Shown here: positions 8,614-8,952 of the stretch, in pieces
Position numbering within the stretch: the first letter of the stretch is position 1
Layout: each line of letters begins with the position of its first letter
NCBI GenBank assembly: GCA_048886685.1
Contig: JBHLKM010000033.1
Location: forward strand, 1 to 17,452
DNA length: 17,452 bases
DNA from: Candidatus Hodarchaeota archaeon
Lineage (GTDB): Archaea; Asgardarchaeota; Lokiarchaeia; Sigyniarchaeales; SOKP01
Direction of reading: 5' to 3'
Position numbers and translations under genes: made by a program
Notes under the pieces: model-generated
Database searches by the model: none
Told to the model about the DNA's origin: nothing
What the model saw: only the letters and a program-made list of their open reading frames with translations

Positions 8614-8934
8614 TTACTGTGTCTGGATAAGAATGTTTTCTTCAGGGAAGCCTAAATCGATTAATAACTTTTTCATCTTAAAGCGATGATCTCCTTGAAG
8701 CTCAACGCCATTATCTCTAACAGTTCCCCCAGAAGCACATTTCTTTTTTGCTCTTGTTAATATATTTTTCAAATTTACATCAAAATTTCCAACAAAAGTA
8801 ATTACAGTAACAACCCTACCCCATTTCCTTGTATCATTAGATATGACTATTTGTTGTTCATCAGCACTTAAGCTATCACAAATACAAAGCTCTTTTGGAA
8901 AGCTACATAATGGACAAATGTCGTCGTCTTTAAT
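8614..8934 (-). CDS. sui1: Translation initiation factor aIF1/SUI1 (YciH family), apparent non-canonical ATT start
   Basis: Not in the ORF track. Manual translation: (ATT)KDDDICPLCSFPKELCICDSLSADEQQIVISNDTRKWGRVVTVITFVGNFDVNLKNILTRAKKKCASGGTVRDNGVELQGDHRFKMKKLLIDLGFPEENILIQTQ*. It contains the archaeal CPxCxxPKELCxC N-terminus and the SUI1 signatures RxxGxxVTVI, CAxGGTV and ELQGDHR. In-frame TAA at 8941-8943 lies just upstream. Gene identity is secure; the start codon is inferred. Confidence 0.9.
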   Translation of the reverse strand: MKDDDICPLCSFPKELCICDSLSADEQQIVISNDTRKWGRVVTVITFVGNFDVNLKNILTRAKKKCASGGTVRDNGVELQGDHRFKMKKLLIDLGFPEENILIQTQ

Positions 8935-8942
8935 ACTCTCTT

Positions 8943-8952
8943 ATCACAACCT
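8943..8952 (-). promoter_or_regulatory. Shine-Dalgarno-like element upstream of aIF1/SUI1
   Basis: AGGTTGTGAT matches 8 of 10 positions of AGGAGGTGAT, the complement of the 16S 3' end seen in this window (17377-17386). It lies 8 nt before the ATT at 8934. Confidence 0.55.

Follow-up and report, generated by a model that had tools for sequence, protein, structure and literature searches.

Does an archaeal proofreader of start codons limit its own synthesis? The question is raised by the gene of aIF1, the SUI1/eIF1 orthologue, in a Candidatus Hodarchaeota archaeon, placed in Promethearchaeota (Lokiarchaeia) by its closest named relatives; this gene appears to begin at ATT. Bacterial infC, the gene of IF3, starts at AUU and is repressed by its product (Butler 1987; Sacerdot 1996, as cited in PMC4705826 and PMC3326321), and eukaryotic eIF1/SUI1 holds down its own synthesis through an AUG in poor context (Ivanov 2010, as cited in PMC3326321 and PMC4705826). 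Self-limiting control of a start proofreader is already known in these two domains, and a literature search drawing mostly on papers outside subscription returned no report of an archaeal case, be it a non-AUG start or autoregulation of archaeal aIF1, nor of near-cognate starts in Lokiarchaeia. Reviews give AUG, GUG and UUG only as archaeal start codons. If aIF1 were controlled in this way, one control logic would operate in all three domains, and the Asgard loop, sitting on the eIF1 orthologue itself, would bear on the origin of the eukaryotic loop. Positions below are those of the window, the whole stretch of 17,452 nucleotides that was analysed (contig JBHLKM010000033.1), and the features around aIF1 are collected in Table 1.

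Identity and start codon of the aIF1 gene

The gene is the sole aIF1 copy in the genome. Its product matches the SUI1 domain PF01253 with an E-value of 6e-17 (62 bits against a curated cut-off of 25.5) and NF002096 with 110.5 bits (curated cut-off 98), and the intact 106-codon SUI1 frame announced in the preliminary description was recovered. The nearest solved structure is that of M. jannaschii aIF1 (4mo0; E 6e-25), whose residue 3 aligns with residue 5 here, so that translation from ATT gives an N-terminus of normal length, as had been proposed. Like the aIF1 proteins of Sulfolobus, Pyrococcus and M. jannaschii (PMC6237735; PDB 4mo0, 5zcy), the protein carries the zinc knuckle, a basic loop 1, GGT and ELQGDH; archaeal aIF1 has this knuckle, a motif described in PMC6237735, and lacks acidic loop 2, unlike eIF1 (PMC6237735). 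The knuckle residues C7, C10, C17 and C19 are invariant across 39 aIF1 proteins of the Promethearchaeia family considered here, which we call f1, and in most family f1 proteins the usual L of CGLP is replaced by F. In the alignment with Pyrococcus aIF1, K37, W38 and R40 of loop 1 fall on the R-Y-G-K loop, where R31, Y32 and K34 bind the 30S subunit (PMC6237735); judged from this alignment, aIF1 keeps its ribosome-binding loop residues. Family f1 is enriched in L62A and a few further shifts. A damaged aIF1 behind the family-wide laxity of start codons described below was ruled out, the key residues being kept.

The minus strand reads AGG TTG TGA TAA GAG AGT ATT AAA GAC GAC GAC ATT TGT CCA TTA TGT at the 5' end of the gene, exactly as first described. 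As also claimed, the frame holds no ATG, GTG or TTG between the in-frame stops and CPxC: the earliest is codon 55 (the 57th after the stop), deep in the SUI1 domain. The upstream TGA belongs to an invariant Shine-Dalgarno (SD) motif. It had been suggested to look for ATT with an SD in aligned orthologues, and for an ATG or an indel at the level of reads. Of 49 distinct close orthologues, 46 have ATT and three ATC as codon 1, next to an SD motif that is 100% identical, and the internal isoleucine codons of the same genes are a free mix of ATT, ATA and ATC. The sediment contig X1 (8771-9010, depth 58), possibly from the source sample itself, shows 0 differences to the aIF1 region. A sequencing error at ATT is ruled out by this identical contig and by ATT/ATC in the 49 orthologues. 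An RNA run (X19) gave two low-depth contigs over the gene, which carry no information on strand or start. Taken together, these data strongly support ATT as the start codon of aIF1, with the predicted N-terminus MKDDDICPLC.

The expectation that gene callers would miss or truncate such a gene was right only in part. Other calls cut aIF1 to 59-84 aa or choose the wrong codon, beginning in relatives at the second isoleucine or at a GTG inside the SD, and yet the NCBI records P0002 and P0003 begin with MKDDD at this very position. With its unusually loose start use, family f1 is often represented in databases by truncated proteins.

Table 1. Features of the aIF1 locus (positions in the window).
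Feature	Position	Strand	Remarks
aIF1 (SUI1/eIF1 orthologue) CDS	8614..8934	minus	106 codons + TAA 8616-8614
ATT (AUU) start codon of aIF1	8932..8934	minus	sole near-cognate codon between in-frame stops and conserved KDDDICPxC
Two in-frame stops, TGA 8946-8944 and TAA 8943-8941	8941..8946	minus	close the aIF1 frame upstream
SD-like element AGGTTGTGAT of aIF1	8943..8952	minus	pairs at 8/10 positions with the anti-SD; computed duplex -9.3 kcal/mol
16S rRNA 3' end with anti-SD GATCACCTCCT	17377..17387	minus	pairing partner of the aIF1 leader, in the same window
BRE/TATA-like promoter (AAAAAAGA TTTTTATAAG) of aIF1	9003..9020	minus	conserved in an alignment of 49 upstream regions
Out-of-frame mini-ORF GTG ATA AGA GAG TAT TAA	8930..8947	minus	overlaps the aIF1 ATT; 5 codons
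Zinc knuckle Cys7-x2-Cys10...Cys17-x-Cys19	8878..8916	minus	5' of the first canonical start codon
Basic loop 1, RKWGR (R36 K37 W38 G39 R40)	8815..8829	minus	from alignment to Pyrococcus aIF1

The leader of aIF1

Upstream of aIF1, GGTTGTGA is 100% identical in the 49 orthologues, though spacer and leader vary. The preliminary description gave the distance from GTGA to the start as 9 nt in aIF1 and 7 nt in the thermosome gene; both values were correct when re-measured, and the aIF1 distance is 9 nt in all 64 close loci. Other ATH starts lie 6 nt after GTGA in 11 of 17 cases (mode 6). The r-protein median is -6.4 kcal/mol, weaker than the duplex computed for the aIF1 SD, so that an unusually weak SD is not supported. 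The conserved BRE/TATA-like block would put the transcription start near 8981, and the aIF1 mRNA thus probably carries some 47 nt of leader, free of ATG. In the alignment of the 49 orthologues the leader varies through indels. A structured leader or riboswitch was sought and not found in the 49 aIF1 leaders, which have a mean folding z of 0.03 and no Rfam match.

The GTG of the mini-ORF is the SD core itself and is missing from three genomes (G162, G163 and G157). We ruled out a role as regulator or as entry point for a frameshift, the mini-ORF being unconserved and its GTG being the SD, and judge it a by-product. A short out-of-frame ORF overlapping the start recalls the uORF autoregulation of eIF5 (PMC3326321), but the mini-ORF is unconserved and lacks its own SD, and the eIF5 loop has the opposite sign. 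A conserved, independently initiated uORF of the eIF5 type was not found at aIF1, the GTG being absent from several genera.

Other components of initiation look ordinary in this genome. The sole tRNA-Met found in the recovered tRNA set, which is incomplete, is of the standard initiator type, with A1:U72, three anticodon-stem G-C pairs and the anticodon CAU, and an altered initiator tRNA was rejected on this basis as the cause of the AUU start. The genes of aIF1A, aIF2 alpha, beta and gamma, and aIF5B start at ATG.

Start codons of aIF1 and of other genes in family f1

Among 93 distinct aIF1 copies of family f1 a near-cognate start is forced in 78, where no ATG, GTG or TTG occurs from the in-frame stop to CxxC. 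Fourteen copies hold an in-frame GTG or TTG in the SD motif only, with an ATH in its usual position three codons later, and two paralogues among them have an additional ATG immediately 5' of the motif. At the start position itself GTG occurs once and ATG in none of the 93. Diverged second copies of aIF1 in the family retain ATT or ATA starts. Such second copies (about 60% identical) were seen in several family genomes (L086, L087, L114-L117, L131, L132, L134), with ATT or ATA after GAGGTG; the one in L134 has lost a knuckle cysteine and contains internal stops. A tree of aIF1 (100 columns, quick method) did not order gains and losses of the start types.

Near-cognate starts are not confined to aIF1. 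In the source genome about 11-12 of 328 conserved genes (at least 3.5%) must start at ATH or ACG, a minimum hand-checked by orthologue comparison from 21 flagged genes. For 14 r-protein genes of family f1 we counted 336 ATG, 30 GTG/TTG, 25 near-cognate and seven ambiguous starts, i.e. 32/398 or about 8% near-cognate or ambiguous; 29 genomes outside the family gave 321 ATG, 47 GTG/TTG, seven near-cognate (mostly doubtful) and one ambiguous. Across a panel of 30 family f1 genomes the start codon of an ordinary gene varies among ATG, GTG, TTG, ATT, ATA, ATC and ACG, and swaps that include ATH/ACG were found in the genes of roadblock, Zn protein, eL21, uS12, uS14, uS3 and uL15. Near-cognate starts (ATT, ATA, ATC, ACG) about 6 nt after GGTGA were also seen in Pop5, ZIP, AAA ATPase and other f1 genes, and starts of this type are largely missing from the other Asgard families sampled. 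On these counts, loose start-codon use is a trait of family f1, and AUU on aIF1 is therefore not proof of regulation by itself.

AUU is rare genome-wide in E. coli, unlike in family f1, where it is fairly common. The rarity of the weak codon elsewhere in the genome that marks E. coli infC was not found here: near-cognate codons open at least 3.5% of the conserved genes and, across the family, account for about 8% of r-protein starts. The AUU of aIF1 in family f1 is thus weaker evidence for feedback than that of E. coli infC.

What sets aIF1 apart is constancy. Canonical starts (ATG, GTG or TTG) occur in the controls at 11/29 (roadblock), 7/30 (Zn protein), 24/30 (eL21), 21/30 (uS12) and 15/29 (uS14), scattered across the genera of the panel, against 0/30 for aIF1 (five with an in-frame GTG inside the SD); the comparison involves few control genes and related, non-independent genomes, and one control gene is near-cognate in 77%. 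The weak site on aIF1 is conserved beyond the genome background (0/30 versus 7-24 of about 30), and the gene of the fidelity factor itself is weakly initiated, with ATT, a 9-nt spacing and no canonical start. Together with the aIF1 starts outside the family, described below, this makes a good comparative case for selection of a weak start on aIF1 in particular.

An N-terminal extension of aIF2-gamma as the cause of the family's laxity was ruled out, long frames being patchy inside and outside the family. In the source genome (G000:C12:48796-50400, plus strand) aIF2-gamma has about 105 residues before the GTPase domain, helix-hairpin-helix-like by eye, and in Promethearchaeia as a whole its open frames are 396 to 535 aa long.

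aIF1 starts in other archaea

Near-cognate aIF1 starts (ATA, CTG) were found in nine of the 26 Asgard families sampled, most of them forced by in-frame stops, and ATG starts in 13 of the 26, families outside f1 being represented mostly by one or two genomes each and relatives not being independent. ATA is used in parts of f3 and in f6, f7, f10, f11 and f15, CTG in part of f31 and in f33; in a pattern tally, 9 of the 51 f31 genomes that hold the motif have CTG two codons ahead of it. Eight non-f1 genomes with a near-cognate aIF1 start have only one near-cognate start among 100 r-protein starts. Without laxity in these other ATA/CTG lineages, a weak aIF1 start is not sufficient for laxity genome-wide. 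At 32 distinct metagenome loci close to f31 aIF1, probably from Thorarchaeia, the start is GTG in 24, CTG in seven, TTG in one and ATG in none, set against about 85% ATG among r-protein starts.

The f3 family is mixed. In the f3 genome that matches cultured L. ossiferum the start of aIF1 is ATG, and in another, which we take to be MK-D1, it is TTG. MKDDDICPLC, proposed earlier as a proteomic target in cultured Lokiarchaeia, is therefore not expected in these strains. With ATG starts in half of the families, including the genus of L. ossiferum, a weak-start loop would not be universal. Distant archaeal aIF1 genes on the metagenome contigs L488, L489, L498 and L500 (43-52% identical to the f31 query) have apparent CTG or ACG starts, and weak aIF1 starts may therefore extend past Asgard archaea.

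A possible feedback loop and its alternatives

How could the AUU start act? The SD element in the predicted leader would dock the 30S subunit on the aIF1 mRNA, and a normal initiator tRNA (anticodon CAU) would initiate at AUU to give MKDDDICPLC. In Sulfolobus the 30S complex with aIF1 binds AUG mRNA and not AUU mRNA (PMC4705826). By destabilising AUU initiation complexes in the same way, aIF1 may act on its own mRNA: high aIF1 would suppress its own translation and low aIF1 release it, so that stringency would be held at a set point. The 9-nt spacer probably keeps the start weak and aIF1-sensitive where AUH at 6 nt is tolerated. Given the precedents of Sulfolobus, IF3 and eIF1 and the kept 30S-binding loop, the simplest reading is negative feedback, and we consider it probable that the AUU start of aIF1 serves a negative autoregulation like that of IF3 and eIF1, in which the start would be sensitive to aIF1. 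The preliminary description had argued for IF3-style feedback from AUU; its ATT start is strongly supported, and the comparisons favour a weak start specific to this gene; the near-cognate habit of the whole family, which it overlooked, weakens the argument from AUU. Since about 8% of r-protein starts in family f1 are near-cognate or ambiguous, AUU is tolerated there, and aIF1 may discriminate little against it.

Both known loops resemble this one in part. As in infC, a fidelity factor's own gene starts at AUU after an SD, with a codon conserved over many genomes; the SUI1 fold of aIF1 is unrelated to IF3, however, and feedback has been shown for IF3 whereas for aIF1 we infer it. With eIF1 the relation is one of orthology (PF01253) and of an own mRNA that is weakly initiated, but eIF1 keeps AUG in a weak Kozak context under scanning, while in aIF1 the codon itself is near-cognate and positioned by an SD.

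A simpler arrangement, in which weak codon and long spacer only keep aIF1 low and output is blind to its level, on the premise that excess aIF1 blocks initiation, accounts equally well for the invariance and the avoidance of ATG, and fits the usual weak starts GTG and TTG on aIF1 in many lineages. We find it rather unlikely, because aIF1 is known to act against AUU and an AUU start would hardly be blind to it; moreover promoter or SD could lower expression, yet both are conserved and the SD duplex is the stronger one. Still less probable is that aIF1 is one of many genes drifted neutrally in a family that initiates well at AUU, AUA and AUC after an SD. The genes forced to ATH/ACG in the source genome and the swaps in the seven ordinary genes named above are what such drift would give, but the controls return to ATG repeatedly and aIF1 never does, its spacing is unlike that of tolerated ATH starts, and near-cognate aIF1 starts occur in lineages without relaxation. 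That ATT is not the start at all (assembly error, pseudogene, frameshift from the GTG mini-ORF, intron or RNA editing) is very improbable: the out-of-frame GTG does open five codons over ATT and 14 copies hold GTG or TTG in the SD motif, but the letters are identical in sediment contigs and about 90 independent assemblies, the single aIF1 copy is intact with its conserved residues, three genomes lack any GTG, and the leader, which is free of ATG, differs by indels.

Beyond negative feedback on aIF1, we speculate that its start may be the stringency set point of Asgard archaea, an old weak-start autoregulation that would foreshadow the poor-context AUG of eIF1; in family f1, AUU and a displaced SD would keep aIF1 low, and several percent of genes would have moved to AUH/ACG and come under common control by the aIF1 level. 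This wider proposal is doubtful.

Neighbouring features in the window

A Rab/Ras-family GTPase (9239-9763, plus strand) is divergent from aIF1 across about 300 nt. The frame of a HerA-like ATPase (13926-15693, plus strand) is open and conserved well 5' of its first ATG (14269), so that it may have a non-canonical start as well. Just 3' of the 16S end lies a tRNA-Ala(UGC)-like gene (17200-17301, minus strand) with an Rfam match, missed by ARAGORN; its D and anticodon arms seem to be separated by an insert of about 30 nt. On the plus strand, 9864-9915 resembles tRNA-Asn(GUU) over its 5' two-thirds and then stops in the T arm; this gene may contain a non-canonical intron.
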